Below, piece after piece: positions 2,706 to 30,225 of a stretch of DNA of 64,000 nt. Every line of letters begins with the position of its first letter. Positions within the stretch are counted from its first letter, which is position 1. The stretch lies in IMG/VR virus record IMGVR_UViG_3300036399_001023; one strand, given 5' to 3'. Source of the stretch: a virus (taxonomy: Duplodnaviria > Heunggongvirae > Uroviricota > Caudoviricetes). The notes beneath the pieces were generated by a model. It was not told where the DNA came from, searched no databases, and was given only the letters and a program-made list of their open reading frames with translations. The position numbers and the translations under genes were made by a program.

Positions 2706-3248
2706 TTACTCTCCAGGGTTTCTCGTCTCAATGCTCCCACGATTCCCCTGAGACTTGAGTTTCTGTACCCTTGCATTTTCTCGTCGTATAGCCAGTTCAA
2801 GCCCGTCAAGACTTGAAACCTGGGGAATTCCGTATTGGCCACAGAAAATGTCAACGTTGCCCTTGCGGTGGAACCCCTCTGGGCAACACACAACCGTTTT
2901 TCTGACAGCGTAGAAACCGAATCCGGCGACGAAGCCAAGTTCGAGCAAAGAAACAGGACTAATGGTACCCGGTGCCAGATACATGACAACCATGCCAGCC
3001 ATCTCTAGGGCATCAAGCTCCCACTCAACCTGCTCTCGAAACACCGGGTTATCGGCGCTTTGAACCCAAGTTGGGTCCCAATCGTCGCGTCGCGGATTGT
3101 AAATGTCAATGTCAATGTCAGCAAGACTACGTTCGAGGTCAGCTTGCCAGTCGGGTGCAGAGCCCATTTCTATTGAACCTGCAAGAAATACACTGAGCCT
3201 CGACGAGAAAGGGGGTAGCTGTGCCGGTGGTTTGTAAATAGTTGCCAT
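2706..3248 (-). CDS. nucleoside 2-deoxyribosyltransferase-like / DNPH1-like protein
   Basis: SVFLAGSIEMG...DW resembles the DNPH1/Rcl and deoxyribosyltransferase signature (YFCGSIRGG). Confidence 0.35.
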   Translation of the reverse strand: MATIYKPPAQLPPFSSRLSVFLAGSIEMGSAPDWQADLERSLADIDIDIYNPRRDDWDPTWVQSADNPVFREQVEWELDALEMAGMVVMYLAPGTISPVSLLELGFVAGFGFYAVRKTVVCCPEGFHRKGNVDIFCGQYGIPQVSSLDGLELAIRRENARVQKLKSQGNRGSIETRNPGE

Positions 3249-5747: not shown

Positions 5748-6100
5748 TGTTCAATTTCCTTATATTTTGCGGAGAACTGAGCGGGAGTCATTGCTTTGTC
5801 GTCTACATAGTATGCCGCCCAAGGTTTTCCAACCAAGATGGTATCGTAGGGTACATCGAATTTAGTGCAGAACTTTTCGATTTCCTCGATAACTTCTTGT
5901 CTCACACTTTCGATGTCACCGTCTGAACGACCCATTCCCCTCGCTGTATTCAAGATGATCGTCCACCCTGCATCCTTCATTGCTCGCATACCCACAATTA
6001 CTTCCATCTTCGGTAGAGAGTTTTCGTAATCGCGGTTTTCTGTTGTGAGGATGGTGTCGTCAACATCGAAAACGATGGTTTTCTTTGGGTCGGGAATCAT
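5744..6100 (-). CDS. HAD-superfamily phosphatase
   Basis: IVFDVDDTILT (DxDxT motif I) plus downstream Thr/Lys/Asp motifs; ATGA overlap with nucleotidyltransferase. Confidence 0.5.
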   Translation of the reverse strand: MIPDPKKTIVFDVDDTILTTENRDYENSLPKMEVIVGMRAMKDAGWTIILNTARGMGRSDGDIESVRQEVIEEIEKFCTKFDVPYDTILVGKPWAAYYVDDKAMTPAQFSAKYKEIEQ

Positions 6101-6171: not shown

Positions 6172-7038
6172 TCAGTTAAGCACTGAGATTGTCTCGTTTG
6201 TGATGGTTTTGAGGCGGATCTCCGAATACCGGGAAAGCCACTCATCCTTTGTTCGACGGCTCTTTGGACTCGCGAGGTCCGGAAACTCAGCACAAAGTTT
6301 CTCTACGGTTTGGTTATTAATCTGAAGCTTTCGCTCCAGGTCTTCGCAGGTTCCGCCACCGCCTGTGTGCTGTTTAGCTTTCACACAGATGTTGTCGAAT
6401 CGCAGTGTCCCGTTTCCATTAACAGTGTGGTACAGAGACAAGAAGTAGTCGTCCTTCATACTGTACTCAGTGATTAGCTCAAAGGCTGGGTCGCCTGCGT
6501 AGAAACCAAATGCGTGGCCCATAATGAACTTGAGCCCCACAGTCACCTTTGGGTGAAGAAAACCCTTGTTGCGAACGGCATAGAAACCGAACAGGCCAAT
6601 ATCGCGCCGCTTGCACATTCGGAATCCTCGATCAATAAGCTCTGATAGCTCCACCACGGTTTTCAGGCGACACGGGTGGTCGAGTGGCTTCTGAGTCCCC
6701 TCAAGGTCTTTTAAGAGCTCAAGTTCCTCAACGGCGCTAACGTCGTCGTCGAACGAAAAAACAGGAGTCCCTTTGTCGTAAAAGTTAGAGATGAAGTGAC
6801 GTTGTTTTGTCAAACCCTTTTCACCAACAACGATATTGTATGTAGGATTTGAACTCTGGTAAATTTCCTTCTCTTCATCGTTTGCCACGAACAAAGTCAC
6901 GTGGGAACAATTAATGTCTGTTTTTTCAAGGTAATTCAGAGTGAGTTTCTTCACTCCGTCGGGCCTCCCGTAAGTTGGGATGGCAATCTGATAGTCCATA
7001 TTTAAGTGTAGTTGATGTGACTGTTGATGGAGCGTCAA
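6172..7038 (-). CDS. GT-A fold glycosyltransferase (GT2-like)
   Basis: YQIAIPTYGRPD near N-terminus and FDDDV (DxD) motif. Confidence 0.45.
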   Translation of the reverse strand: MTLHQQSHQLHLNMDYQIAIPTYGRPDGVKKLTLNYLEKTDINCSHVTLFVANDEEKEIYQSSNPTYNIVVGEKGLTKQRHFISNFYDKGTPVFSFDDDVSAVEELELLKDLEGTQKPLDHPCRLKTVVELSELIDRGFRMCKRRDIGLFGFYAVRNKGFLHPKVTVGLKFIMGHAFGFYAGDPAFELITEYSMKDDYFLSLYHTVNGNGTLRFDNICVKAKQHTGGGGTCEDLERKLQINNQTVEKLCAEFPDLASPKSRRTKDEWLSRYSEIRLKTITNETISVLN

Positions 7039-7087
7039 GAGTAGACGTCTGCTGCGTCCTCTTATCTCCGACTGTGTTATCCGGTGG

Positions 7088-7852
7088 TTAAACTAAGTTG
7101 CAAAAGATAATTTGTCTCCAGCGAGACACCAGCATGTCAGCGTACTGCTGTCGAGTTGGTGGGTTCGATTGCGGGTCGCTATTTTCGTAGAACCCAAGCG
7201 ACCACGCATCGTTAAGTTCAACTAGGCAGTACCGATTCAGGTCAGGCCTCCAGCCGATGTCAATCGTGTAAGCACCAGGCGCAATATTTGCCTCTAGCAC
7301 ACCCATAATCTCTTCAATCAGGCCGAAGTCGGGTTCGGGGTTTCTTACGGGCTTGTCGTCATACCGCGACCACCCCTGAATTTTACCACCCCCAATGAAG
7401 TCGTGAATGTAGAACCGAAATTCCGACTCAAAGGGCACAGCCTGAGAGATCCACACTGAAGTGTTATCAGAAATTAGTCCAGGTATCTTCAGTTCGAGCT
7501 CTCTCTTGATGTCCCCGGTAAACAACTTTATTGCGGTTGGCTTCACAAAGTCTTCCAAGGTTGCTTCACCGTACACTCCTTGTCGAACGGACCTCATAAG
7601 GTACTTTTTCAGTTCTGCATTACACCCGTAGGAAAAGTCCTCAGGTAGCACAATACCTACGTGTTCACTGTAAGCTTGAACAAATTCCACCGATCCCACA
7701 GGAATCAATGTAGCCATGAAACCTTTAGGGTCTAACTTCGACAGATCATAAAACGAGCAATATTGGACAGGGTAACAGGAGAAACTACACGCAACCTTTT
7801 CGATTTGTAGTGGTCCTCCGGACTGGAGTAGGAAAGTAGGATTTTTCATCAC
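7088..7852 (-). CDS. hypothetical protein, possibly ATP-grasp-like
   Basis: C-terminal YCLVELNDAWSLGFY resembles the ATP-grasp E.N Mg-binding motif; weak. Confidence 0.3.
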   Translation of the reverse strand: MMKNPTFLLQSGGPLQIEKVACSFSCYPVQYCSFYDLSKLDPKGFMATLIPVGSVEFVQAYSEHVGIVLPEDFSYGCNAELKKYLMRSVRQGVYGEATLEDFVKPTAIKLFTGDIKRELELKIPGLISDNTSVWISQAVPFESEFRFYIHDFIGGGKIQGWSRYDDKPVRNPEPDFGLIEEIMGVLEANIAPGAYTIDIGWRPDLNRYCLVELNDAWSLGFYENSDPQSNPPTRQQYADMLVSRWRQIIFCNLV

Positions 7853-7861
7853 GGTGGGTAA

Positions 7862-8047
7862 TTAGTTAGGAAACAACGACAGTATATTGGCATTAACCCA
7901 CTGGGCCTCTTCTCTCGACAACTTCAGCCACAGAAGGTCAAGCTCGTCGAGCAAGGCCTCCTCCGCGTCCTCGTTTCCCTCTCCCCTTAACTTCAGGGAC
8001 AAGCTAAGTTTTTCGCAGTAATCTTTAACTTTGTTAGTCATTGACAC
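7862..8047 (-). CDS. small hypothetical protein
   Basis: ORF track 61 aa. Confidence 0.3.
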
Positions 8048-8631
8048 GTAGAGTCAAGATTGGATCGAAGCATATTGCAGAAAATACGACCTTGTTCAAT
8101 AGCATCCTCTACAGCGATGTGAGTATGCTTGTTTTCGAGGGGAAACCACTCTTTCGGGTAGTTCCGTTTGGTGGACTCCCGGTATCCTCTTTTGAGCAAG
8201 GCCATAGCATAGGTCTTACCGTCAAGCGCCGAGAAGCTAAATGGGGACTGTCCAGTGAACCGAATAAGGTACCAATACACGAAAAGAAAGTCAAACCCTG
8301 CAGGAAAACCCACGAACACTGGAGAAACTTTTCGAACATTCGCTTGAGAGAACGAGCTTGCTGTAGCACTGACCCATTGAGAAAAGGCGAGCATGGCTCG
8401 GTCGGCAGGTAAAACCTTCTCTCTGGTTGCTCTGTAGGCCTCCGGGTGAGACTCCCACCACGCTTGGGTAGTGGGGTCCGGGTCGGCTCCGGGGAGGGTC
8501 TCTAGGTTCACAGAGAAGGTGCCCAGGAGTTTTCCGTCAGGGGAAAACGCAGCCGACCCAAGCGAAAGCATGCTGTTAGGTCCGGGGATCGGTCCGTCGG
8601 TCTCAACGTCTGTGCTGAAGTAGATTTCCAT
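8038..8631 (-). CDS. DEDD-family 3'-5' exonuclease-like protein
   Basis: [10 protein letters not shown] Exo-I-like motif near N-terminus. Confidence 0.45.
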
Positions 8632-8652
8632 CTGTGGCTCGTTTGTCTTTGG

Positions 8653-8700
8653 TTATTTTACCGTGTCTACGCTGTAGAAGCAAGGGCGGGAAACCGTCTC
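8653..8700 (-). promoter_or_regulatory. intergenic terminator-promoter cassette
   Basis: ttattttaccg-tgtctacgctgtagaag-caagggcgggaaaccgtctc. Confidence 0.45.
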
Positions 8701-9031
8701 ACCTCTTACCCGGAATGAACAAATTTGAGGCAGGTTCGTCTTCAATGCGAATTGCTTCCTTGGCGGTCAGGTCGTTGGTTCCTTCGATGCGAGTAAACGT
8801 TAGTCCGTACCCTTCACTCTCGGCTTGAGATGCAACGGAGTAGAGCCCCAGCGATCGTACAATAAGGTCACCCTCCGACAAGCCCTCTCGTTGAGCAAGT
8901 GCCCGGAAAGCCTCAGCGAAGCTTACCGGGAGTTCCACCGTAATGGTTGTTGTTGCTTCAATGGGTTCAATACTCTCCGAGGCAACTTGCCGCTCCGCAT
9001 CGCCACCGTTAAGCTGTTTGTTTGTGTCCAT
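8699..9031 (-). CDS. hypothetical protein
   Basis: ORF track 110 aa. Confidence 0.4.
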   Translation of the reverse strand: MDTNKQLNGGDAERQVASESIEPIEATTTITVELPVSFAEAFRALAQREGLSEGDLIVRSLGLYSVASQAESEGYGLTFTRIEGTNDLTAKEAIRIEDEPASNLFIPGKR

Positions 9032-9083
9032 TGTTAGTAATGCTGTGTTTTGTTCGTTAACTGCCGCTTCGGCGGCTTCAGGG

Positions 9084-10571
9084 TTAATTCTCGGTGCCCC
9101 AATAGTTAGTATTTGAGCAACGTTCTAAGCCGTGTTCGGCTTTATACGTCATCCATTCCGGTGATTTCCACATTCCGCTCCAAACACCATTCCAGGTCTT
9201 GTGACCCTTTCCATACTCCTTGTGATTGTCTGCTGCGTATCGCATGAAATCTCGGCGGCACTCCTCACACTCCATATCGTCAAGAGCGGTCATGCGCTCT
9301 CGTGAATAGAAAACGAACGAAACTCGTTCAGCGTCAGGCGTCTTCGGAATCATTGCAGTGTTACCGTGAATCAGTCCCTGATTGTCACCGGCAATAAAGT
9401 CCCCATCACGAAGGTCGAAAGCGCAACGAATTTCAGGGAACACAAGGTAATGGCCGTCATATTCCCCTTGAGTAATTGCAGTAAGAACGGCAATACCACC
9501 TTCGCAGTTATTACCGTCGTAGTGCATCGCACAACGGAAGTTCCAGTTTAACGTAAGGGCAGTGAACACCGTACCGAAGAGGTTATAGTGCGGGTCTTTC
9601 ACGTTACTGAACCGTTCGTGAAGGCGGTCCCACCGAGGGTTTTCCGGAGTGTTTAGGGTCTCTTTGAGTGCGGAACAAGCTGTCTGATAAATATCCGTGT
9701 GGCTTACGAACCCCTCATAGTCTTTTACAGTTGTTGCGGTCAAACGACCGTAAGGGTTACGTGCACCCCTATCAAAAGCACCAATCACGTTGGAATAGCA
9801 CTTGTTTGAACGGTATTGTTTTCCCACATACCTGTCGTCGGCACGTTTCGCCTCAGAAACCTTGTCCTTAGATACACTCCAAGTCTTGGATAGCCACGTC
9901 GGGAACCACTTCGCAAGTTCTCTACCCTTCGCTTCCTTCAGCTCTACCTTTCTTTCTTCGCTCAGCGTTTTCTTGCGAAGTTCCTTCTCGATAGATTCTA
10001 AAGCTTTCTCAATTTCTGGGAAGTCCTTTTTAACATCATTCACTCGGACAGTGAGCTTTGACATGTCGGGGGAGAGAGAAGCAATTTTCAGTGCCTCTTC
10101 CAAGTCAGTGACTTGACCGGCCATCGCCTTCTTGAAGAAGTTTAGAATACCGTTGGTTACCCTTATCTCGAGTTGGGTAGTTAGTTCTCTACCAGCAACT
10201 AGGCCTCGTTGGTCTGAGTACAAGTCTCTTGCTGCCCAGCGGAAGTATTTCCAAGTTTCCGGGCTACCTTTCGAACCATCGCGCAGCTTCGGAAAAAGTG
10301 CCTTACGAAAGGCAACAACTTTCACTCCGCCCACATAAACGTCGCAGTCTTCTTGAATAAGGTTGTCGTAAGAGGTTTCGTCGGCGAAATAGCCAATGTA
10401 GTCTTTCGGGTCACACTCGTATAGCTTGTCGAGGTCGATTCGGCGGGGCTCTTGGCGAGAGCTTAAATCACAGACAACGGCTTCACTTACAGAACAGTTA
10501 TCGTTGCATTTTTCATTTCCGGTTGAAGCGGCTTTAGAACTCTTCGTTAAGTTTTCTGTCACAAATGTCAT
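9084..10571 (-). CDS. TET/JBP-family 2OG/Fe(II) dioxygenase (nucleic-acid base hydroxylase)
   Basis: CAMHYDGNNCEGGIAVLTAITQGEYDG parallels TET [26 protein letters not shown] (HxD iron ligands); LIHGNTAM...ERVSFVFYSRE parallels the TET second His and R.SLVFYQH 2OG-binding Arg. Confidence 0.7.
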   Translation of the reverse strand: MTFVTENLTKSSKAASTGNEKCNDNCSVSEAVVCDLSSRQEPRRIDLDKLYECDPKDYIGYFADETSYDNLIQEDCDVYVGGVKVVAFRKALFPKLRDGSKGSPETWKYFRWAARDLYSDQRGLVAGRELTTQLEIRVTNGILNFFKKAMAGQVTDLEEALKIASLSPDMSKLTVRVNDVKKDFPEIEKALESIEKELRKKTLSEERKVELKEAKGRELAKWFPTWLSKTWSVSKDKVSEAKRADDRYVGKQYRSNKCYSNVIGAFDRGARNPYGRLTATTVKDYEGFVSHTDIYQTACSALKETLNTPENPRWDRLHERFSNVKDPHYNLFGTVFTALTLNWNFRCAMHYDGNNCEGGIAVLTAITQGEYDGHYLVFPEIRCAFDLRDGDFIAGDNQGLIHGNTAMIPKTPDAERVSFVFYSRERMTALDDMECEECRRDFMRYAADNHKEYGKGHKTWNGVWSGMWKSPEWMTYKAEHGLERCSNTNYWGTEN

Positions 10572-21464: not shown

Positions 21465-21667
21465 AGGGTTTTAAGTATAGCCCGCAGAATCTGAGACTCT
21501 TCTTTCTGTAGCTCTAATCTCCTCCGCCTCAGTTTTAGCTTAGTTCGCCTCATCTCCCTAACTCGACTTTCCAAGGAAAGTGCACGCACCTCTGCTAAAG
21601 AGGATGCTTGCCTCAGAGGCAAAAGCCAGTCAGTCTCGTCTAGGAAGGGGGACATTCGTCCAGGCAC
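21461..21667 (-). CDS. small Arg-rich hypothetical protein
   Basis: ORF track 68 aa. Confidence 0.3.
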   Translation of the reverse strand: MPGRMSPFLDETDWLLPLRQASSLAEVRALSLESRVREMRRTKLKLRRRRLELQKEESQILRAILKTL

Positions 21668-21981
21668 AGACCAACGTCAAGGTTAAGCTCGTCAAGAGCA
21701 CTTTGAACTTCCGACCTTCCTGTGTTCTCGTAGACCACACTTCCCTCACTACCCGAGAAACCCTCAACAAATTCGTCAAGGTCGTCTAAGTCAGCGTACT
21801 TTTCAATTAGGTCAGTGTACCCTGCGTTAAGCACGGACTGAAAGAAGCCGTCGTCGTCAAGTTCATCAATTGCCGCTTTTACGGAGAGGGAGTATACGCG
21901 GAGAACTTCGCTTATTGGTGCGTTGTTAATCACTCGTGAAATCACTTCATTCACGAATTCTGGTTTGTCTTTAATTGTCAT
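21640..21981 (-). CDS. hypothetical protein, paralog (C-terminal EVQSALDELNLDVG motif) of 22355..22519
   Basis: shared peptide motif and 17-nt identical DNA block agagcactttgaacttc. Confidence 0.4.
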   Translation of the reverse strand: MTIKDKPEFVNEVISRVINNAPISEVLRVYSLSVKAAIDELDDDGFFQSVLNAGYTDLIEKYADLDDLDEFVEGFSGSEGSVVYENTGRSEVQSALDELNLDVGLCLDECPPS

Positions 21982-21989
21982 TTTGCATG

Positions 21990-22049
21990 TGTATAACGGT
22001 TTCTTTAGCGCCGTTGAACTTCTATGTGTTCAAAGGGGAAACCGTAAAC
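21990..22049 (-). promoter_or_regulatory. degenerate cassette abutting the 3' end of tRNA-Ser
   Basis: gtataacggtttctttagcgccgttgaac...caaaggggaaaccgtaaacg. Confidence 0.3.
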
Positions 22050-22133
22050 GGAAGAGGGGGGATTTGAACCCCCGGAGGTTTAACCCTCTACAGTGTTCGA
22101 AGCTGCTGCTTTCGGCCGCTCAGCCACTCTTCC
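22050..22133 (-). tRNA. tRNA-Ser (anticodon CGA), type II, no encoded CCA
   Basis: hand-folded: acceptor GGAAGAG/CTCTTCC, D-arm GCT-GAGCGGCCGAA-AGC, anticodon loop TTCGAAC, long variable arm, T-arm GGGGG-TTCAAAT-CCCCC. Confidence 0.6.
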
Positions 22134-22223
22134 TTGTCACCGTGGTGGGCCACTCCTGTGTCGTTCACCGGATATGGCCTGTGGGTGTGTTCTTTAACGA
22201 GTTTTCGAGGACTTGAAACTAAG

Positions 22224-22312
22224 TAGGCGTGTAGGGAGTCGAACCCTAACTAGCCGGTAATCTGCCGGAGAGGACTTTATAATGGTCCCTGTGCACCGTA
22301 CACCACACGCCC
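22224..22312 (-). tRNA. atypical type II tRNA, anticodon uncertain (UAU in a 7-nt loop with C.A closing mismatch, or a 9-nt loop CATTATAAA)
   Basis: acceptor GGGCGTG/CACGCCT (G.U first pair), T-arm TAGGG-TTCGACT-CCCTA, long variable hairpin CCGGCAGATTACCGG. Confidence 0.45.
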
Positions 22313-22354
22313 AGGATAGGGAACCACCGTGTGAGGTGGAACCCAAGGTAAAGC

Positions 22355-22519
22355 TCAGACAGAGGGAGTTTGAACTCCGACCGCCAAGTCAAATTCGTCT
22401 AGAGCACTTTGAACTTCAGTGCTGGTGCTTGCCTCGCTGAGTCTTAGGAGGAGCTTTGCGCCGTCGGGGTTTTCGACGCCAATTCGTGCGGCACGATCAA
22501 CTAGAGAAAGATTTGCCAT
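22355..22519 (-). CDS. small hypothetical protein (MANLSLVDRAAR...), paralog of 21640..21981 C-terminus
   Basis: listed 110-aa ORF trimmed because its 5' part overlaps tRNA-Arg. Confidence 0.35.
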   Translation of the reverse strand: MANLSLVDRAARIGVENPDGAKLLLRLSEASTSTEVQSALDEFDLAVGVQTPSV

Positions 22520-22566
22520 TTTGTATTGTTGCTGTTGTTGTTTAGTGTGGCTGCAAAGGCAACCTA

Positions 22567-22638
22567 CGCCCTGAGAGGGATTCGAACCCACGACCGGTGT
22601 CTTAGAAGGACAGTGCTCTTCCACTGAGCTACCAGGGC
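22567..22638 (-). tRNA. tRNA-Arg (anticodon UCU)
   Basis: hand-folded: acceptor GCCCTGG/TCAGGGC, D-arm GCTC-AGTGGAAGA-GAGC, anticodon loop CTTCTAA, T-loop TTCGAAT. Confidence 0.6.
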
Positions 22639-22699
22639 TTTCACGTTTAGAATAGCGTTTCACAAGGGGAGTAAACCTTATCTGCAAGGCACCCTTGAC

Positions 22700-23056
22700 T
22701 TAAGCCCCCTCTCCCGCGTCATTGGACTCCCCTCTCACCCACTCAACCCAGTAGTCTCGCGGGCACCGCATGTTTGCCATGGTTGTCTTAGCGGGAAGAA
22801 AGCATCCGCACTCGTCACAGGTTGAACTTTTTTCTTCAAAGGATCCGCACACATTGCTCTCACAAATTGAGAGTCGGTCCTTTGCCACTTGGCGAGGGGC
22901 AAACGACGGATCTTCCAGCATTCGTTTAGCTGTGTCAATCAATGATGCGCCGAAACTTCTGCGGCAACATTCTGGCTCTTTATTCGTTTGTTCCAACGTT
23001 GCTCTGCGAAAGGTCTGTACAGTGTAATTTACCCGGATCAGTCCGTAAAGGTGCAC
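22700..23056 (-). CDS. Cys-rich (zinc-ribbon-like) hypothetical protein
   Basis: C.NVC...CDECGC...C pattern. Confidence 0.35.
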   Translation of the reverse strand: MHLYGLIRVNYTVQTFRRATLEQTNKEPECCRRSFGASLIDTAKRMLEDPSFAPRQVAKDRLSICESNVCGSFEEKSSTCDECGCFLPAKTTMANMRCPRDYWVEWVRGESNDAGEGA

Positions 23057-23481
23057 AAGACCGAGAGATGCTTGTACAAAATACTCTCATCGAAAAACCG
23101 GTACTCCGACGAAAACTCTTCTCTCTGCTGAAAGTGTTCGAGCTCTTTTAAGGTGGCCCTAACGACCGGGCAGTCTGAAACGTAATCCTTGTACCAGAAA
23201 GTGTTGAACTTTGGAATGTACTTCCACCTATCTCCGTGCGGAATCCAAACTTTTTCAAATTCTATTTCGAATAGCGAGAACGGGTCGTCCCATTCTTCAG
23301 GATTTACGACGCTTAACTGCTGAACGATATCTTTCGTATCGTCGAGAAACCACTGAAAGTGCGTGCTGTTGGGGGATACTTTCCATGTTAGGTTGACAAT
23401 AAGATAGGGGATGTCGGGAAAGTCCCCTGACTGCACCGAAACCTTCTCGGCCACCCTTAAGCTAGTGATTGCCGTTTTCAT
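23038..23481 (-). CDS. hypothetical protein
   Basis: ORF track 147 aa. Confidence 0.4.
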   Translation of the reverse strand: MKTAITSLRVAEKVSVQSGDFPDIPYLIVNLTWKVSPNSTHFQWFLDDTKDIVQQLSVVNPEEWDDPFSLFEIEFEKVWIPHGDRWKYIPKFNTFWYKDYVSDCPVVRATLKELEHFQQREEFSSEYRFFDESILYKHLSVLCTFTD

Positions 23482-23756
23482 CTTCCTCCGAAATGTTTGA
23501 AACTTCCGGGGTTCCCCTCAAAAGAAGCGTCTCAAAGAATTCGACCACGTCTATGCGATTAGTCGTATCAACTCCCGCCGTGCGACAGAACTCGATCGCT
23601 TCGTACTCAAAGGGGAAGAACGGGTTGGACAAGCCGAAAGATTTAAGTCTCTGCAGGAAACAGTCTCGGATTGCGCCATAAAGGGGTGGGAAATCGGACT
23701 CGTTAAGTTCGACGGTGCGTTCAACTTTCGACGGTGCGTTATACGTGATTTTCATA
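23462..23756 (-). CDS. hypothetical protein (MKITYNAPSK...; listed 212-aa ORF trimmed)
   Basis: ATG at 23756..23754 one nt after the TAG of the upstream paralog gene. Confidence 0.35.
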
Positions 23757-24377
23757 CTACTCAGTGGGGTGTACTGAATGGGAATTACGTTCAATAACTT
23801 GTTCCAGGAAAACAAGTGCTTGTTCGTCAGTGTCGAAGAAGTGGCCTGCTGCATTCGATCCGAGAAGCACCTCTCCCGCTTCTTTAGGTGTGAGAGTAAA
23901 AGCACCAACCCCTCCCATAACCTGCGCGAAGCCCGCCAGACAGTGAGTGGTCCCGCACGTGTGAAAACCTGCTTCGTTCGATGGTTCCTTCCAGAAGGAC
24001 CAATCTTCGTAAGTTGTTCTGTCAGTGTCAAACCAGAGCTTGTGCCACCTCTCCATGTGGAGGTTTTTCCGGTCGCGCTCAACAATCCATAGTGCGACAT
24101 GGAGGAGATTGGCTTCCTGTTGGTCGGGTGTCAACCCTCCCAATTCTTCTACGTTTCTGTACTGGCACTCATCTAAGGCGTCAAGGGCGAGTAGGAAATT
24201 CGCCGGGATATGAGGGAGCGGAGGGAGCCCTTGTGATGTGCACATCCGGTGAGCAACCCGAGTGGCTTCAGCTGGCGTCAGTGCTTCGGTGCAAGTTGCT
24301 GTGGTCATTGTTTCGTTCGAAAATACAATAGTTTGTTTGGAAAAGGTGAACGGTGCGGGGTTTTCCTCGCCCAGCAA
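23757..24377 (-). CDS. hypothetical protein, paralog family A (MTTAT...LPPLPHIP...QQEANLLHVALWIVERD...HCLAGFAQVM)
   Basis: three paralogs in the window: 23757..24377, 44183..44668, 45051..45386. Confidence 0.45.
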   Translation of the reverse strand: MLGEENPAPFTFSKQTIVFSNETMTTATCTEALTPAEATRVAHRMCTSQGLPPLPHIPANFLLALDALDECQYRNVEELGGLTPDQQEANLLHVALWIVERDRKNLHMERWHKLWFDTDRTTYEDWSFWKEPSNEAGFHTCGTTHCLAGFAQVMGGVGAFTLTPKEAGEVLLGSNAAGHFFDTDEQALVFLEQVIERNSHSVHPTE

Positions 24378-24379
24378 AC

Positions 24380-24670
24380 CTAGGGGAAAGGCTTACGCGT
24401 TACAAAGTAAGTTGAGACCCCTTGGTCGTTGCAAATGTGGAGACTTAGGGTCCTCTCGGTTATGTACGGGTCTGCACGAACTGAGTTACTCACCAGCTTG
24501 CACTTTTCGGCTAAAACCTTCGCTTCTTCCCTCTCAATCTCAGCGTTGTGCTCTTCCGCTCTTCGGTAGCTCAAGTTAATTACCGCCACCACTAGAACTG
24601 CTAGCCCTAGCGCAGTGACAATAGTCACTAAGCCAAGGATACCGCCAACATACGGGTTCTCAGTTTTCAT
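24380..24670 (-). CDS. single-pass membrane protein
   Basis: hydrophobic stretch GGILGLVTIVTALGLAVLVVAVI. Confidence 0.4.
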   Translation of the reverse strand: MKTENPYVGGILGLVTIVTALGLAVLVVAVINLSYRRAEEHNAEIEREEAKVLAEKCKLVSNSVRADPYITERTLSLHICNDQGVSTYFVTRKPFP

Positions 24671-24897
24671 ACTTCGTGAAATACCACTTCTGTTAACTCT
24701 AAGGACTGAAAATGATCGCGCAGCGCCGTTAGCGCTTCTTGCTTTGTATTAAAGAAAACGTCCGGGCCTGGGCAACCGTCTACGCCTTCATTAAAGAAGG
24801 TAAGGAACCACCACCATAAGAACTTGTGTTCGCAGTAGAACCGGCTAATCCTTTCACCGTTTTCGGTACGGATTTCTTCTCGAATGCGGTACTTCAT
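24667..24897 (-). CDS. hypothetical protein (start moved to MKYRIREE; listed N-terminus runs through cassette)
   Basis: ORF track 105 aa trimmed. Confidence 0.35.
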   Translation of the reverse strand: MKYRIREEIRTENGERISRFYCEHKFLWWWFLTFFNEGVDGCPGPDVFFNTKQEALTALRDHFQSLELTEVVFHEV

Positions 24898-24934
24898 TGG
24901 GGTTGAGGGTCGGGGGGGATTGAGGGCTAGCCAA

Positions 24935-24982
24935 CTAACTTTAGCGTGTTCACGGCAAGGGAGAGGGGGCGGAAAACCGCCC
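24935..24982 (-). promoter_or_regulatory. intergenic cassette variant
   Basis: ctaactttagcg...ggcaagggagagggggcggaaaaccgccc. Confidence 0.4.
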
Positions 24983-25035
24983 ATTCCCCTTGGTAAGATC
25001 TTGGGAGCGGGACCCTTGGGCCCGGTGCCCTAGGG

Positions 25036-25863
25036 CTAGACAGTAGCCATTTCAAGGGCTACTTCCATGGCCCGCTGGTTGATGGTTGCGCCTTGACCGA
25101 AGTTTGCGTAACCGAAGCGTCCGGTCTCGCTCTTTCGACTACGATTGGAACTAAAGTCCGTAACCGCATTCATGGCATCGTAAAAGGTGCGACCTTCGTT
25201 ACCAGCGCCGTTGTAAAACAAGTCGTTGAGAACGTTGACATTGCGCATTTTGTCCGCTTCTTTCTTGTAAGTCGCCTCAAGGAAGGCACGGAATTGGGTT
25301 GAAGTGCAAGTTTCCGAGGCGATGACTTCAACGCTTTCAGAATACTTCTTCATGGCGCTATTCACAAAGTCAAGCACTGCGGTGCTCTCAAGAATGCGCT
25401 CGTTCACTCCGGAAGAGTGGCGGAATTTTTCTCCGATGTTAGAGTAAGCCATCGAAAAAGTGTTGCCGCAAATTACGCGAGTGGCAACCGGACCGATGGC
25501 CACGGAGGCGTTTCCCGTGTGCCCATTCAGAAGAGTAATGTAGGCGTTGTAGTCCTCGCCAACTACACGAAACTCCTGGTTGATTTTCGCCTGTGCAAAC
25601 ACCTTGGCCCCGTGAGCCAAGTATCCCATGTTTTCCACTACCAGAAGCCCCTCTTCAACCATAGGGTTGATCATCTGGAGAAGCTGGGCATTTTGCACCA
25701 CCTCGTACCCGGTGGAAACATATCCGAGGCGTTCGTCGGTGTCGTCTCGGTGTATCGCTTTGCGGTCTGGGTCCGCAACCCAGACTCCCTGGGAGTTAAG
25801 CGATGCCGTGGGCCTTGGGGAGACGGTCCAGTTAAGGTCGTTGGTGATGGCGAAAGCGGGCAT
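25036..25863 (-). CDS. DUF932-like phage/ICE-associated protein
   Basis: LLNGHTGNASVAIGPVATRVICGNT resembles the DUF932 core. Confidence 0.45.
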   Translation of the reverse strand: MPAFAITNDLNWTVSPRPTASLNSQGVWVADPDRKAIHRDDTDERLGYVSTGYEVVQNAQLLQMINPMVEEGLLVVENMGYLAHGAKVFAQAKINQEFRVVGEDYNAYITLLNGHTGNASVAIGPVATRVICGNTFSMAYSNIGEKFRHSSGVNERILESTAVLDFVNSAMKKYSESVEVIASETCTSTQFRAFLEATYKKEADKMRNVNVLNDLFYNGAGNEGRTFYDAMNAVTDFSSNRSRKSETGRFGYANFGQGATINQRAMEVALEMATV

Positions 25864-25882
25864 GGTTTGTGAGGGGTTGCTT

Positions 25883-25938
25883 GGACTGAAATAACTATAC
25901 CGCTTTCCTGTCGGAAAGGAAAGGGGGGTAAACCGCCC
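25883..25938 (-). promoter_or_regulatory. cassette, subfamily with GGACTGAA leader
   Basis: ggactgaaataactataccg-ctttcctgtcggaaagg-aaaggggggtaaaccgccc. Confidence 0.5.
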
Positions 25939-26227
25939 TTCCTCTGGAGCTAAGACCCGAACCTCAGTCTCTTTCCCACAATTGAGAGCACCGTTGACTA
26001 CATTTCACCGGTCTGAGCGGGTAGCTCATTTTGGTTTTGAACGCATTTCTTTGTACTTCTTCTGCGTTCCTACCTGTAATCACTACTTGGGTCTTGCACA
26101 ATGCCTCGTTGCCAGATAAAGCGGTGCAAAGCGCCAAGATCGCAATTGAAACTCTGTTCATTGTTCGTGTGAAAGTGGAAGCGGTGGGACTCGAACCTGA
26201 AACCGAGCCTTAGACCTCCGAAGTACC

Positions 26228-26770
26228 TTAACTTGCGGGCTTTTCCGGCGAAGAACCAAGTTCCTGCGATGCGGCTAGATATTCTTCGATGGCTGCATGA
26301 AAGTTGGATTCAAATTCAGCTATCGTTTCGCCGTGAAACGAGATAATGTCGTCGATGTCTATGACACGACCAACAATAATCTTGTCTTCAGTATCGAAGA
26401 CCATACTGGCTGTGTAGTCTTTGTAGGCCATGGAATTGATCATGGCTTTCCGCACCCATGTAGAAGAATACGGTTCAGTAAGCATGTACAAACCTTCCTC
26501 AAACTTCCCTGTAGAGAGAATGATTTGGAGGGCTGTTTGAGTTTGTTCGTGAAGTTGCCTGTACTCCTCTTCCTGTGACTCGGTCAATTCTTCTAGGTCT
26601 TCTCCAGTCAGAATTTCGTGTATGTCCCCGATAACCCAACTGTTGCCATACGGTCTTTTCGGGTCTATTTCCGGAGCACCGAATTCACAGTTGCTCCACC
26701 CAACGTGCATTCTTCTCAGCAGTTTCAGGTGGTTTTGAGTTAGGAGAAAGAAGGTCTTGCTGTTAGTCAT
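26228..26770 (-). CDS. hypothetical protein
   Basis: ORF track 180 aa. Confidence 0.4.
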   Translation of the reverse strand: MTNSKTFFLLTQNHLKLLRRMHVGWSNCEFGAPEIDPKRPYGNSWVIGDIHEILTGEDLEELTESQEEEYRQLHEQTQTALQIILSTGKFEEGLYMLTEPYSSTWVRKAMINSMAYKDYTASMVFDTEDKIIVGRVIDIDDIISFHGETIAEFESNFHAAIEEYLAASQELGSSPEKPAS

Positions 26771-26784
26771 AACAAAAATGGGAA

Positions 26785-26896
26785 TGGGACCGGCAGGACT
26801 CGAACCTGCAACCGCGCCTTTAAAAGAGGTAATTTAATTGCTGATGTATCTTTGTCAAGATAACTTTTCGTGCTCTACCAGTTGAGCTACGGTCCC
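26785..26896 (-). ncRNA. tRNA-shaped ncRNA (112 nt) with anticodon arm replaced by about 37-nt structured insert; Y-RNA/YrlA-like candidate or intron-bearing tRNA
   Basis: perfect acceptor GGGACCG/CGGTCCC, D-arm GCTC-AACTGGTA-GAGC, T-arm GCAGG-TTCGAGT-CCTGC; internal hairpin TATCTT-GACA-AAGATA. Confidence 0.5.
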
Positions 26897-26953
26897 GTAT
26901 TTGATCCGAAAACTACCTGGAGCGATATTGAAAGTTTTTTCTTAGCCCTTGAG

Positions 26954-27205
26954 CTACTCTCCAATGTTAGTGGGTTCAAAGGTTAAATTAAACCACTCCC
27001 CGTCAGAGTTACAAAACAAGAGCTTAGAGTCGCTGTCGTCGGGGTAAAGCCAGATCAGCATGTTCTTTAACGATTTGTTTTGGGAGTTTTTGGGTAGGGT
27101 CTTACCTCGCTTCAGTCGATACAATAAGTCATGCCCTATCCCTTTACTCGGCACGTCTAACCGTATCCCCTTGTCACCGTCAAAACCTGCTTCAGTGGGT
27201 GTCAT
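26954..27205 (-). CDS. hypothetical protein
   Basis: ORF track 83 aa. Confidence 0.35.
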   Translation of the reverse strand: MTPTEAGFDGDKGIRLDVPSKGIGHDLLYRLKRGKTLPKNSQNKSLKNMLIWLYPDDSDSKLLFCNSDGEWFNLTFEPTNIGE

Positions 27206-27358
27206 ATCTTTTTGTTCTATCTAAGTTTGCTTGGCAAATTACTTGGATCGAGAATAAAGGTCTTTTACTATCATTATGGAGATAAAGTTTGGGTTTAGCT
27301 AGATAGTTGTTTTTCCCAAGAGAGTTGGGGTAAATCGCTGAACTATCTATGTTTGCCG

Positions 27359-27490
27359 AAGGCAAAGTCGAAGAGGCAAGATTCGAACTTGCGTATGGCG
27401 GTTCCTTTTGCGTATTGGGTAGTTGCTGAATTACCTAAGCTAGGTAATCTTTTTGCATTACCGCTGCCTAACCACTTGGCTACTCTTCGG
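27359..27490 (-). ncRNA. tRNA-shaped ncRNA (132 nt) with about 57 nt inserted between anticodon-stem strands GCGGT/ACCGC; Y-RNA/YrlA-like candidate
   Basis: acceptor CGAAGAG/CTCTTCG, D-arm GCC-AAGTGGTTA-GGC, T-arm GCAAG-TTCGAAT-CTTGC; insert has alternative hairpins around GGTAAT/ATTACC. Confidence 0.5.
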
Positions 27491-27617
27491 TTTTTCGCAC
27501 CGCTTTGCTGGGTGTAGGTTAAGGGGGGCAAGGAGTGGAACCTTGAGCTCCACATCCGTATCATAGGTTGAGAGTGCTAAGGGTAAACGGACTCAAGCAG
27601 AGACCCTCACTCGGGGC

Positions 27618-28013
27618 CTATCGCGGGGCACCACCCATATACTCTCGAAAGGCGTTCATAAAGCACCTTACGTCCTCCTCGTAAGATGTGTCAGGGTCGT
27701 ACCACGAGAAGGGGACTTTTTGCGATATCTTCTTGGAGAAAATAAGGTCATACTTGGCTTCATCGGAGAGCTTAGACTCGTAGATTGAGTTTGCCTCTCT
27801 GTACACTTTGCTTAACTCCTCAAAGCCCTCTACCTCTTCGTTCGACTCCATGGCACCTCCATACCACTCTTCGAGGGACTCCACAATTTCTCCAAGCCTT
27901 GCGGCGTAGGTGTGTTGGTCGTCCCTCAGTAAACTGTCACGAAAAGAGCGCAATTGACTCAGGGGTTTGTTAAACTTCCACATTGCTTTAGGGCTAACGG
28001 AGAAAGGAGGCAT
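27618..28013 (-). CDS. hypothetical protein
   Basis: ORF track 131 aa. Confidence 0.4.
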   Translation of the reverse strand: MPPFSVSPKAMWKFNKPLSQLRSFRDSLLRDDQHTYAARLGEIVESLEEWYGGAMESNEEVEGFEELSKVYREANSIYESKLSDEAKYDLIFSKKISQKVPFSWYDPDTSYEEDVRCFMNAFREYMGGAPR

Positions 28014-28065
28014 CCCCGAGAAGATGCTGTGTTCTGGGGGGTGTTTTCCATACGTGAACTATAGC

Positions 28066-28124
28066 GGTTTTACTGAGCGAAGGAAAGGGTGAAAACCGAA
28101 CCGCTAGGGGCGGTTAACCGCCCT
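28066..28124 (-). promoter_or_regulatory. intergenic terminator-promoter cassette
   Basis: gaactatagcgg...aaagggtgaaaaccgaaccgc..ggcggttaaccgccc. Confidence 0.5.
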
Positions 28125-28386
28125 GGCTCAAATTTGTTACTCGTCGAGTCCCCTTGTACAACTCGATAACTTCACCATCTTCCGACACTCTTACGTCGTA
28201 ATGGCGGTACTCGGTTGGTATTTCGTGTCCAACTAAGGGTGTGAAGTCTCTTAGAAAGTTCTCCCAAGAAATAACATTGTCTAGGCCACGACTTCGTAAG
28301 TTTTCTACAAGACTGTCGTACTCCTCCCGCAAAGAAGAGGAAAAGGGAGCCCACTCGCTATGCGATTCACTTGGTTGACCTTGCAT
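28114..28386 (-). CDS. hypothetical protein
   Basis: ORF track 90 aa. Confidence 0.4.
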   Translation of the reverse strand: MQGQPSESHSEWAPFSSSLREEYDSLVENLRSRGLDNVISWENFLRDFTPLVGHEIPTEYRHYDVRVSEDGEVIELYKGTRRVTNLSQGG

Positions 28387-28555
28387 ACAAATTCGACAGT
28401 AGCAGAAGCAGAATGAGTGACAAAATGGACACAGAGCCTAAGATTACGATTGGGCTAAACACTGAGAGCCATGGCCAGGTTATTTGCCCCGTTAATTTCA
28501 ACCCGAGGAGGAGACCCTGGGCTGTCATTAACGAAACTGCGAGATTCTCAAACAT
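28367..28555 (-). CDS. small membrane protein (tandem paralog 1, ..TGQITWPWLSVFSP..)
   Basis: hydrophobic 62-aa ORF. Confidence 0.35.
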   Translation of the reverse strand: MFENLAVSLMTAQGLLLGLKLTGQITWPWLSVFSPIVILGSVSILSLILLLLLSNLYARSTK

Positions 28556-28558
28556 TAG

Positions 28559-28744
28559 TTATTTCTCATGCGAAAGTAGTTGAAGAATCATCCAAAGGGC
28601 TCCCAACCCAAGTAGAAAGATTGGCACAAGGGTTGGTGAAAGCACTGTGAGCCAGGGCCAGGAAACCTGACCTGTTACCTTCAGAGTTATGAAAACGGTT
28701 TGCAGAACGATGCAGAGGGCACCCGGCAATTTGATCCAGATCAT
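28559..28744 (-). CDS. small membrane protein (tandem paralog 2, ..TGQVSWPWLTVLSP..)
   Basis: hydrophobic 61-aa ORF. Confidence 0.35.
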   Translation of the reverse strand: MIWIKLPGALCIVLQTVFITLKVTGQVSWPWLTVLSPTLVPIFLLGLGALWMILQLLSHEK

Positions 28745-30225
28745 GCTCCTTCAGCAAATACGGCACCGACAGCGTCGTACCTTTCAGTGTAAACAGCGTC
28801 ACGCATAACCCCTACAGGCGTAATTACCCCGCCAGTAAGCACAGCTTTCAGGATTGAAGGGCTGCATCCGGAGACCAGGCAAGTTCCCGTATCATGCATT
28901 TTCATAGGTACGTTGCCGCTAGAGCTAACATTCCAGAAGACAAGTTCCGGCAAGGAATACCCTGCTTGAGCATACTTGATTCGCACCGCCTCAAAGTTTG
29001 TTACCGAGTTGTTTCTGCAGCAGGAGTCAAACTGCATGTCTGAGACAATGATAAGCTTGCGAGGCATTTCCCCTTCAGGAATATGGTTCCTCGTTGCGGT
29101 AGCCAACACAAGATTGAAGACTGCCTGCAGGTCCGTATTCATTCCCCAGGATGCGTTGGAAAGGTTCCTGATGCGTTGAGCAATTGTAGAACCTGTGACC
29201 GTTTGCAGCTCGGGAGTTGCAGAGAATGTGAGGAACCTGTCTTTCCAGATTCCAGTGTTACGCTCAGCGATGTACATCGCCAGCGAGATTGAAACCGCCA
29301 TGGGCATGCCGCCGTTATTTCCCATTGATCCTGAGACGTCGGCAATTACCAGGCCGTTCAGCTGCTCTCCTTCCATGTAGTTGGGTAGAGCCTCCCACAT
29401 TAAGTTTAGAGTCTGATCGCTCCTCTCACCCCCGTAAAGGTACTTGTGCACGATCTCGTAAGGGTAGATCGTACCGGCATTGATTTTTGCCTCACCTTTC
29501 TCTACCGAGTCAAGGTAGGATTGGTAGCGGTCGCCGTCGCGCTTGGCGAAAGCTTTACGATACATGAAGCCTGCCCGAGAAGGCAACTTGCTATAGTCAA
29601 TGCTTTCCCACTCACGGGCACACATTGGCTGCTCAACAATCTTGACTTGTGACCTGAGGGCAGTCAGGGCTTTGCGGTACTGCCTCTCGGTCCAACCCAT
29701 TGCTTCGGCAATTTTTCGGCCAATCCTCTTAGAGTCCTGGCTGGAAGCGTTAATGGAAGGCAGCCACTTTGCCAGAAGTGACACTGACTTTCCAACTTCC
29801 GTATTTAGGTCGGCGTTCAGTTGTGCCTTAATTGCTTCGAGTGCGGTGCCCCAAACTAAGGTACCGTCGAGGGCTACCACATCATCCCAGCGACCGTACT
29901 GTGGAATCAGGCTAACTAGCCTGGCACCAATTGCAGCGTCATTGCGGACGAGTTCTTTAAAAACTTCTCGAAAGATCTTTCGCTCTCCCTGGCCCCCACG
30001 AATGTCGCGTGCCCAAAACAAGATTCGAGTTGCGGTCTCAGGGGCGTCTGCGTAGGCAAGGTTGAACAGTCGAGTTGCTTCGCTGATGTTGTCACGGCAA
30101 GCTGCAATCTTTCCAAAAAGGTCCAGGCACTTAGACTCGGTGGATTTGTATGCCTTTGCACCGTTAGCGGTGATGGTTTGGTTAAACTCGTTTTCGAGTG
30201 CGTTTAAAAAGGATGGCGTTGTCAT
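28741..30225 (-). CDS. rsr: Ro60/Rsr-like protein (TROVE-like N-terminal region + vWA domain)
   Basis: vWA MIDAS motif LVIADVSGSMGNNG and LIIVSDMQFD in C-terminal third; N-terminal FLNALENEF...NGAKAYKST typical of TROVE/DUF2828-type proteins; 494 aa. Confidence 0.5.
   Translation of the reverse strand: MTTPSFLNALENEFNQTITANGAKAYKSTESKCLDLFGKIAACRDNISEATRLFNLAYADAPETATRILFWARDIRGGQGERKIFREVFKELVRNDAAIGARLVSLIPQYGRWDDVVALDGTLVWGTALEAIKAQLNADLNTEVGKSVSLLAKWLPSINASSQDSKRIGRKIAEAMGWTERQYRKALTALRSQVKIVEQPMCAREWESIDYSKLPSRAGFMYRKAFAKRDGDRYQSYLDSVEKGEAKINAGTIYPYEIVHKYLYGGERSDQTLNLMWEALPNYMEGEQLNGLVIADVSGSMGNNGGMPMAVSISLAMYIAERNTGIWKDRFLTFSATPELQTVTGSTIAQRIRNLSNASWGMNTDLQAVFNLVLATATRNHIPEGEMPRKLIIVSDMQFDSCCRNNSVTNFEAVRIKYAQAGYSLPELVFWNVSSSGNVPMKMHDTGTCLVSGCSPSILKAVLTGGVITPVGVMRDAVYTERYDAVGAVFAEGA

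Follow-up and report, generated by a model that had tools for sequence, protein, structure and literature searches.

Ro60 is an RNA-quality-control protein whose ligands are Y RNAs and misfolded RNAs, and Ro60/Y-RNA particles are conserved from bacteria to humans. In the Ro60/Rsr-YrlA systems, the YrlA RNA is laid out as a T arm, an acceptor-like stem-loop and a D arm, ends in a Ro-binding stem and carries the Rsr-binding motif GNCGAAN0-1G (PMC4201824). Phage Ro60/Y-RNA pairs with canonical TROVE proteins are also already known (PMC4201824, PMC12135203, PMC7824862). Here we describe a locus in a 64,000-nt stretch of Caudoviricetes DNA (IMG/VR record IMGVR_UViG_3300036399_001023; hereafter the window), in which a minus-strand gene for a 494-residue protein (28741-30225) is followed downstream by two tRNA-shaped RNAs, E2 and then E1. 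A first-pass annotation of the same DNA had proposed a Ro60/Rsr-like protein with two YrlA-like RNAs. The locus appears to belong to the Ro60/Y-RNA system as a branch not yet described, and a Ro60-type ribonucleoprotein (RNP) with a new class of partner RNA is probably its best reading, a view that we hold with some reserve. The case draws on protein fold, RNA structure, covariation, and linkage between gene and RNA across phages, giant viruses and bacteria. The main components are the following:

28741-30225, minus strand: 494-residue protein of the DUF2828 + DUF7788 family, with an N-terminal helical-repeat domain and then a C-terminal vWA domain with a MIDAS (metal-ion-dependent adhesion site; DVSGSM, residues 296-301)
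27368-27489, minus strand: E2, a 122-nt tRNA-shaped RNA that has 57 nt (27403-27459) in place of the 7-nt anticodon loop; Rfam tRNA model, 44.7 bits
27422-27448, minus strand: module inside E2, hairpin AUUACCUA-GCU-UAGGUAAU (27430-27448), then U and CAGCAAC (27422-27428); match to covariance model (CM) R1 at 27420-27450, 23 bits
26785-26896, minus strand: E1, a 112-nt tRNA-shaped RNA, in which 39 nt (26830-26868) interrupt the anticodon stem of a tRNA-Lys(UUU) body between positions 28 and 29; Rfam tRNA model, 48.5 bits
26837-26864, minus strand: the module of E1, in which the hairpin G-(U bulge)-UAUCUU-GACA-AAGAUA-C (26846-26864) precedes AU and CAGCAAU (26837-26843); CM R1 match at 26835-26866, 38.9 bits, with helix covariation

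Like the Ro60/Rsr-YrlA systems (Chen et al. 2014, PMC4201824; phiLo Ro60-Yrl, PMC12135203), the locus has a ring-type helical-repeat and vWA/MIDAS protein of Ro60 fold and, no more than a few kb from its gene and mostly on its strand, one or several small RNAs. One or more of these RNAs resemble tRNA in their D, T and acceptor features, the strand preceding the tRNA-like part bears a conserved motif associated with a stem, and large phages with RNA-repair ligases are among the carriers of the system; a second, simpler RNA that lacks a full tRNA body recalls YrlB. Unlike Ro60/Rsr, the protein belongs to the DUF2828 family (more than 7,700 uncharacterised proteins), which the TROVE profile misses. 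The motif also differs from that of YrlA, being a duplex + CAGCAA and not GNCGAA, and the window RNAs follow the usual strand order of a tRNA: their acceptor ends are open, and the module sits within the anticodon arm as a closed hairpin, so that the YrlA layout is circularly permuted. A further difference is that E1 retains an intact anticodon stem-loop, and the giant-virus and some bacterial loci have putative partner RNAs in tandem without any tRNA-like part. Searches of the literature on DUF2828, phage tRNA introns and TROVE/vWA/tRNA-like combinations yielded no description of a DUF2828-RNA pairing, and nothing turned up there on DUF2828 function or on the duplex + CAGCAA motif.

The 494-residue protein matches the Pfam families DUF7788 (8e-51) and DUF2828 (1e-35) and, weakly, VWA_2. 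The TROVE profile (Pfam PF05731) matches neither the window protein at E<=0.1 nor any of 63 family members at E<=1, and PF25045 (vWA_Ro60) is matched weakly by five of the 63. A PDB sequence-profile search gave a sole match, to the MIDAS region of human RO60 (E 1.1), so that a comparison of structures was needed. The AlphaFold (AF2) model, built on an alignment of 63 sequences with 27-86% identity, is confident (predicted local distance difference test 87.9, predicted template-modelling score 0.87), and its best 10 Foldseek matches in the PDB are all Ro60/TROVE structures, including 1yvr (E 6.7e-7, template-modelling score 0.57) and the Ro60 of Thermus phage phiLo. A helical-repeat ring domain is followed by a vWA domain, as in Ro60; the latter contains the MIDAS pattern DxSxS...T...D, whose residues D296, S298, S300, T364 and D396 are invariant in 63 homologues, and the DVSGSM motif pointed out in the first-pass annotation is part of it. 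Judged from the model, the Ro60 architecture is real and was revealed by structure comparison alone, and the protein is predicted to be a divergent, distant member of the Ro60 structural class, with a helical-repeat TROVE-like domain and a vWA/MIDAS domain. What had been called a TROVE/DUF2828-type N-terminus in a Ro60 architecture is therefore upheld for DUF2828 and for the fold, and fails for the TROVE profile. The lack of TROVE similarity in hidden Markov model searches, named beforehand as grounds for giving up the idea, is indeed seen at the sequence level and is overturned at the structure level.

Both RNAs are recovered by the Rfam tRNA model RF00005, whose gathering score is 29. E1 matches over its full length at 48.5 bits, 52 nt of its anticodon arm being aligned as a local insertion, which bears out its proposed coordinates and length (26785-26896, 112 nt). 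E2 is found at laxer filters, at 44.7 bits and thus above the gathering score, with 57 nt between GCGGU and ACCGC; ARAGORN calls neither element. The ends first assigned to E2 (27359-27490, 132 nt) were one base too long at the 5' side and nine too long at the 3' side, whereas the placing of its insert between GCGGT and ACCGC agrees with the tRNA-model alignment. The perfect 7-bp acceptor stems and canonical D and T arms described earlier are all present: GGGACCG/CGGUCCC in E1, and CGAAGAG/CUCUUCG in E2, where the D arm, the T arm and a 5-bp anticodon stem (GCGGU/ACCGC) are intact. Insert lengths had been given as 37 and 57 nt, the second correctly, the first for an E1 insert that measures 39 nt (26830-26868). 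E1 reads GGGACCG-UA-GCUC-AACUGGUA-GAGC-A-CG, 39 nt, CCU-CUUUUAA-AGGCG-CGGUU-GCAGG-UUCGAGU-CCUGC-CGGUCCC-A. With the insert set aside, C27 and G28 together with CCU pair with AGGCG in a perfect 5-bp stem around the loop CUUUUAA, the residual stem-loop CCU-CUUUUAA-AGGCG lying at 26815-26829. The clean anticodon stem that the first-pass annotation missed in E1 thus exists, as CG+CCU/AGGCG split between positions 28 and 29, and its view that the anticodon arm had been replaced holds for E2 but not for E1, where a complete stem-loop is split by an insertion in the 5' strand.

Relatives of the protein come with similar RNAs. Sixteen viral loci were retrieved through the protein alone (L numbers denote the relatives' loci and contigs used for comparison), and 14 of them have 74-96% identity. 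All 14 carry one to three tRNA-model matches of 112-128 nt downstream on the gene's strand, the nearest 0.2-2.4 kb past the gene end and the farthest about 5.4 kb; recurrence in 14/14 loci retrieved in this way is not chance. In the window, E2 starts 1.25 kb and E1 1.85 kb past the end of the protein gene on the same strand, and both combine tRNA-like D and T arms with a position less than ~4 kb from a Ro60-like gene. The tRNA bodies of the 14 loci are E1-like (L001-L014), E2-like (L007-L014) or of a third kind, E3, which is absent from the window. Related contigs reach 277-279 kb, the window being part of a large phage of a jumbo-phage lineage whose nearest cultured relative is a Synechococcus phage, with a bacterial host. 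This relative, Synechococcus phage B3 (MN695334, 245 kb), encodes a homologue of the 494-residue protein, gp345, followed downstream on the same strand by two Y-CAGCNAU-loop-X units, a gene annotated 'tRNA-Pseudo-GCA', another unit and ordinary tRNAs, in that order. The 'tRNA-Pseudo-GCA' gene (110 nt) is the E2 orthologue and contains AUAUCUAG-UU-UAGAUAU-UAA-CUGCAAU. Phage B23, another cultured Synechococcus phage, possesses the system as B3 does, and in both the RNA carries a pseudo-tRNA annotation.

The inserts share a module, defined as a 6-9 bp hairpin, 1-3 nt and then CAGCAA(U/C). In each of the 14 jumbo-phage loci it is located downstream of the DUF2828 gene. TCAGCAAYTA is exact in E1 and E2 with no other mismatch-free site in the window, and CM R1, a covariance model of the module, finds just two sites in the 64-kb window, E1 and E2. 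Across 28 distinct sequences the 6-bp module helix is 100% paired, a figure that is partly circular because several of the rows were picked by a pairing-requiring filter; double changes occur at 6/6 pairs with 6 G-U cells, and the pairing is matched by 0/500 shuffles. The E2 module stem covaries among orthologues (AUUAUCUCG/AGAGAUGAU, AUCAUCGAG/AGUGAUGAU, AUCACCUAG/UUAGGUGAU). RNAalifold on 16 elements recovered the acceptor, D, module-hairpin and T helices, with compensatory changes in 16/24 pairs, and within a tRNA-body family the hairpin + CAGCAAU segment is 90-92% identical. The shared blocks first noticed in the two inserts are therefore a conserved structured module and not a random intron, as had been argued, with a covarying stem that is found widely beside the DUF2828 family. 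A first motif scan (AAGRTACAKMCAGCAATTA) matched only the E3 family plus several chance coding matches; among the matches listed from a gapped-pattern scan of genome contigs, nearly all were chance coding matches and only L111 and L120 were real.

The same helices could be read at the DNA level, as operators or recombination sites that act as double-stranded or cruciform palindromes and regulate the DUF2828 gene or mobilise the locus. Near-perfect palindromes (GTATCTTGTATAAGATAC) would suit such a role, as would the tandem arrays of L038, L044, L051, L224, L228 and L229, which are immediately upstream of the gene and divergent from it. However, G-U wobbles, a U bulged on one side and a CAGCAA confined to one strand are intelligible only in RNA and argue for an RNA element rather than a DNA palindrome, the jumbo-phage copies lie downstream of the gene, inside tRNA-shaped genes and at a fixed structural position, and each unit of L111 has its own perfectly complementary stem, unreadable by a single DNA-binding protein. 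We regard a DNA-level element as highly improbable.

Beyond the jumbo phages the module follows the protein family. In pattern scans and in tblastn with the window protein as query, the tRNA-embedded modules with enough flanking sequence all lie just downstream of a DUF2828 gene of 60-96% identity, and copies free of a tRNA adjoin homologues of 28-41% identity. Two 55-nt tandem copies are found in L038, L041, L087 and L099, and the contigs L044 and L051, from giant-virus metagenome-assembled genomes (MAGs), have copies just upstream of the gene. Further cases come from loci retrieved only through distant proteins. In L224-226, with a bacterial-looking gene context, AGUAUUCU-GUAU-AGGAUAC-AUUC-CAGCAAC is repeated in tandem three to five times, each copy 83 nt long; L228 has two copies and L229/230 five, in both cases near capsid or polymerase genes of giant viruses, and the L229/230 copies have the stem GUUCUUU/AGAGAAC. 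Tandem modules also stand beside 28-41% homologues in the viral contig L053 and the Clostridia-class MAGs L111 and L120. The modules might instead be processing punctuation only, the duplex + CAGCAA being a cleavage or processing signal for a host or phage ribonuclease in a polycistronic tRNA/small-RNA transcript and the proximity to DUF2828 a result of co-transcription and not of binding. Many-unit arrays do resemble precursor transcripts, and in L111, L022, L043 and L075 real or tRNA-like genes sit exactly between the complementary strands, followed by CAGCAA, so that units whose ends pair would be set free once RNase P and RNase Z cut out the tRNA. A general signal would be expected at other tRNA clusters as well, yet the three ordinary tRNAs at window 22049-22638 are without the hairpin + CAGCAA module and CM R1 matches only beside the DUF2828 gene; the motif also tracks the protein family across phages, giant viruses and bacteria with differing RNases. 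Processing punctuation alone appears decidedly improbable.

Membership of the window RNAs in YrlA (RF02553) was considered and rejected, since the model does not match, the strand order is wrong and the motif differs. The Infernal/YrlA search suggested in the first-pass annotation, made as an Rfam scan of window 21500-28800 at E<=10, returned tRNA matches only, with neither YrlA nor Y_RNA. E1 and E2 run from the 5' acceptor strand through D arm, anticodon region and T arm to the 3' acceptor strand, and where YrlA has GNCGAAN0-1G they have AAGAUAC-AU-CAGCAAU (E1) and UAGGUAAU-U-CAGCAAC (E2). A link to YrlA is seen in L120, a Clostridia MAG with a 40%-identity homologue. An RNA just upstream of its gene matches YrlA over the full length with 40.2 bits (E 3.7e-7), although below the Rfam gathering score (40 vs 69 bits), and has the YrlA order of T arm, acceptor-like stem-loop and D arm. 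Its 5' end, UAAAGAUG-UGU-ACAGCAAAU, occupies the position of the Rsr-binding strand of YrlA, and in AAGAUG-UGU-ACAGCAA the AAGAUG pairs with the 3' end GCAUCUUG. Only once they have been permuted in silico do the phage elements align with the L120 RNA; for E1 and E3 this alignment is collinear, and the extra 17 nt are the residual anticodon stem-loop. The proposed YrlA-like class thus applies to one bacterial homologue locus and fails for the window RNAs in model, order and motif; in all tests run these appear to behave like Y RNAs while falling outside YrlA.

L111, an Eubacteriales MAG with a 41%-identity DUF2828 homologue, has about eight units upstream of the gene (4900-6100, minus strand) of the form 5'-AAG+stem-NN-ACAGCAA-cargo-stem'-CUUG-3', each with its own complementary stem, and two ordinary tRNAs are interspersed; if RNase P and RNase Z excised these tRNAs, the units set free would have ends that pair. 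Together, the L120 and L111 units indicate that the basic unit has the topology of a Y RNA, namely a terminal duplex and, immediately within it, CAGCAA. In the jumbo-phage elements this terminal-duplex unit is circularly permuted, with the duplex closed by a 3-4-nt loop and the acceptor stem open. A unit of the terminal-duplex type is also present in the window, additional to the two elements of the first-pass annotation, and is separated from E2 by a short hairpin:

27351-27366, minus strand: short hairpin UUUGCC-UUC-GGCAAA directly 3' of E2 (from its fold)
27300-27349, minus strand: third putative partner-RNA unit, no tRNA body; UAGAUAGUU (27341-27349), CAGCGAU (27334-27340), a loop of ~25 nt and AACUAUCUA (27300-27308) (from conservation and fold)

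The minimum free energy fold of the third unit contains a 9-bp stem (z -3.1). Among the distinct sequences listed, the unit is kept with a variable loop in L001-L006, L008 and L011-L014. L011 shares the motif CAGCGAU with the window-type loci, whereas L012 and L014 have CAGCAAU, L013 has CAGCAAC and L008 has CAGCUAA; L007 and L009 are without it at the corresponding position. Y-CAGCNAU-loop-X units of this kind occur in phage B3 and in L111 as well. A loose scan of the window for Y-CAGCNA-loop-X units gave as many matches as shuffled sequence, so the argument for the third unit comes from conservation and fold. In relatives, the stems of the short hairpin differ and still pair (GUUUCUC/GAGAAAC, GUUUUUC/GAAAAAC).

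E1 allows a different explanation. Removal of 26830-26868 leaves, on reading the sequence, a perfect tRNA-Lys(UUU) with the 7-nt loop CUUUUAA, canonical in having U33 and a purine at 37, and the viral contig L235 has an insert-free ordinary tRNA-Lys that shares the 5' 25-mer of E1; by these letters, E1 is derived from tRNA-Lys(UUU). Since E1 keeps a complete anticodon stem-loop that is split by the insertion, it could contain an intron, and small tRNA introns of a new kind are the main rival: inserts of 39-57 nt would be recognised via the hairpin + CAGCAA and excised and the halves rejoined into working tRNAs, for example by the phage Rnl1-type ligase, with the Ro60-like protein as a chaperone or specificity factor, or unrelated. 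As with tRNA introns at non-canonical positions, the insertion lies in the anticodon arm and, in E1, its removal restores a canonical tRNA; the insertion positions, 27/28 to 29/30, resemble the archaeal non-canonical sites of bulge-helix-bulge introns. In related elements removal restores the canonical loops AUUACAC (Val), AUUCCAC (Gly), AUCAUAC (Met), AUGUUAA (Asn), CUGCCAA (Gly) and AUCCAAA (Trp), the insert is always in the 5' half of the anticodon arm, and a T4 Rnl1-type RNA ligase (PF09511, 2.9e-16) is encoded on the minus strand at window 50926-52098, ~21 kb from the Ro60-like gene. This ligase could relate to tRNA repair or to the processing of the tRNA-shaped RNAs.

An intron would account for E1 but for neither E2 nor the variable loops nor the copies outside tRNAs, and we consider it unlikely. 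No single deletion in E2 restores a loop with U33, as read from the sequence (deletion of all 25-74-nt segments by brute force was also run through ARAGORN, which proved too permissive to discriminate), and neither the E2 orthologues nor the type-C elements (L024, L065, L068, L075) have a recoverable anticodon loop. The loops of E1 orthologues are CUUUUAA, AUUUUAA, CGUUUAA, ACGUUAA and AGGUUAA, with U33 lost in the last three of the five, and other orthologues have 8-9-nt loops. One conserved body bears different 'anticodons' across phages: the anticodon-like loop is the least conserved part of the E3 family (63% vs 87-96% elsewhere), and a single E3 body is found with AUUACAC, AUUCCAC, AUCAUAC, AUUCAUGC and AUCAGACA. 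The insertion point is not fixed either, being 27/28, 28/29, 29/30 or the whole loop. Changing anticodons, loss of U33 and a variable insertion point are not how decoding tRNAs evolve. Unlike in tRNA introns, the insert is more conserved than the exon loop and exists outside tRNAs too, in tandem arrays beside DUF2828 genes and in the terminal stem of a permuted tRNA-like RNA. At 39-57 nt the inserts are far too short for group I introns such as those in bacterial tRNA anticodon loops, as the first-pass annotation stated, and no Rfam intron or ribozyme match was found. Archaeal tRNA introns differ in turn: the host here is bacterial, no clean bulge-helix-bulge motif was seen by eye, and neither RtcB nor a splicing endonuclease is among the 31 window proteins scanned against Pfam.

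Returning to the Ro60-type RNP, we infer its binding, processing and biological role as follows. The three downstream RNA elements on the gene's strand would be partner RNAs of the protein and a functional counterpart of Y RNAs. They would share a recognition module made of a short duplex whose 3' strand is followed by 1-3 nt and then by single-stranded CAGCAA(U/C), which the protein may bind by analogy with Ro60/Rsr and Y RNA. In the jumbo-phage lineage, the module appears to have entered the anticodon arm, in the form of a closed hairpin, by grafting onto tRNA-derived scaffolds, of which that of E2 would have lost its anticodon loop; in the third unit and the bacterial relatives, the duplex would form from both RNA ends and enclose a cargo, as in the classical Y-RNA topology. 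The tRNA-shaped body, with ends of the RNase P/CCA type, could mimic a tRNA in the infected cell and either recruit tRNA-handling factors or compete for them, and the particle may have a role in RNA surveillance or repair.

Several results weigh against this account. To the failures of the TROVE profile on the protein family and of the YrlA model on the window RNAs, the sub-threshold score of the L120 RNA and the circular part of the pairing figure must be added DUF2828 loci that have no module within 4-6 kb, namely L015, L016, L227 and L231-234 (L227 and L231-234 represent three other giant-virus proteins). Conversely, AAGAUAC-AU-ACAGCAAUUAUU-(20-35 nt)-GUAUCUUG directly follows a tRNA 3' end at L017 1222, L023 3892 and L029 3810, with no DUF2828 gene within the sequence examined; the gene may lie elsewhere, or the motif may be used independently. 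Finally, E1 and several E3-family elements regain perfectly canonical anticodon arms on removal of the insert, as introns would. Two further loci are worth recording here. A 194-kb viral contig, L093, has six tandem 64-65-nt repeats of a hairpin + CCAGCAAUCUCC (2811-3156, minus strand), with no DUF2828 gene within the 10 kb examined, and in L016 a permuted two-piece transfer-messenger RNA (1482-1739; RF04321, 82.7 bits) and six tRNAs are located upstream of a 39%-identical DUF2828 homologue.

The loop itself deserves comment. In E3-family and related elements (L008, L009, L011, L012, L014, L034, L037, L065, L075) it is hypervariable on a conserved tRNA body, reads as the anticodons UAC, UCC, CAU, GUU, CCA and AGG, and occurs in 8-9-nt variants; this could be neutral decay or diversifying selection. 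tRNA-Lys(UUU) is a classic anticodon-nuclease target: T4 Pnkp/Rnl1 repairs PrrC-cleaved tRNA-Lys, and a T5 tRNA-Lys variant neutralises PARIS. Like phage tRNAs and decoys directed against anticodon nucleases, E1 appears to come from tRNA-Lys(UUU) in a phage that has an Rnl1-type ligase; to our knowledge, the known phage tRNA decoys are ordinary-sized tRNAs without a protein-binding module, and no nuclease or defence context was identified at this locus. A bolder scheme, which we think distinctly unlikely, would make the tRNA-shaped RNAs programmable tRNA mimics instead of passive tethers: a Ro60-like RNP with a fast-evolving anticodon-like loop on a constant tRNA body would decoy, sense or help to repair tRNA-nuclease attack, and hairpin cleavage, or excision and religation by the Rnl1 ligase, could interconvert forms in tRNA order and in Y-RNA order. 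Were this true, the loop displayed in the window would be Lys(UUU), the attackers would be host tRNA-cleaving defence nucleases, and the DUF2828 proteins of giant viruses, bacteria and eukaryotes would form an unrecognised second Ro60 lineage with partner RNAs of its own.

For the Ro60-type RNP as such, the results suggest that DUF2828 is a second Ro60-type lineage missed by sequence profiles, and that its partner RNAs can be predicted from the easily recognised duplex + CAGCAA signature in phages, giant viruses and bacteria. The existence of the same putative tRNA-mimic RNP in two circularly permuted forms suggests that the tRNA shape itself is the functional part. Such a system would explain why a class of tRNAs in jumbo-phage genomes is called 'pseudo' or is missed, and its presence in the cultured Synechococcus phages B3 and B23 makes it directly testable.

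Two candidate features of the E1 insert were rejected. Pairing of its A-rich 5' end with the anticodon loop (AAAAG/CUUUU), offered in the first-pass annotation, holds in the window and is inconsistent in L008, L011 and L012. A sigma-70-like promoter, TTGACA-16-TAAATT (26858-26831, minus strand, 10/12 positions), was dropped because the count of promoter-like sites equals the shuffle expectation; moreover, TTGACA is the hairpin loop, which is variable in orthologues (GUCA, GUAC, GAAU).

Between the Ro60-like gene and E2, two small open reading frames of 61 and 62 residues, hydrophobic by eye, lie at 28367-28744 (minus strand); in relatives L008-L014 their place is taken by an E3-type tRNA-shaped RNA. 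Elsewhere, the window encodes a 5'-3' exonuclease and a dTMP kinase. A minus-strand gene set at 6172-10571, with a TET/JBP-type 2OG-Fe oxygenase (9084-10571), a TET-associated glycosyltransferase (6172-7038) and an ATP-grasp R2K protein (7088-7852), is probably a DNA base hypermodification cassette. At 58059-60583 (minus strand) a NAPRTase-family gene adjoins a gene similar to phosphoribosyl pyrophosphate (PRPP) synthetase, a couple that we take to serve NAD+ salvage, by which phages counter defences that deplete NAD. A 90-nt tRNA-like gene at 22223-22312 (minus strand), called Ile(UAU) by ARAGORN, has the long extra arm CCGGCAGAUUACCGG; it scores below the Rfam tRNA gathering score and has a weak likeness to tRNA-Sec (25.9 bits). 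It is flanked by ordinary tRNA-Arg(UCU) and tRNA-Ser(CGA) genes and is kept in L005, L006 and L016.

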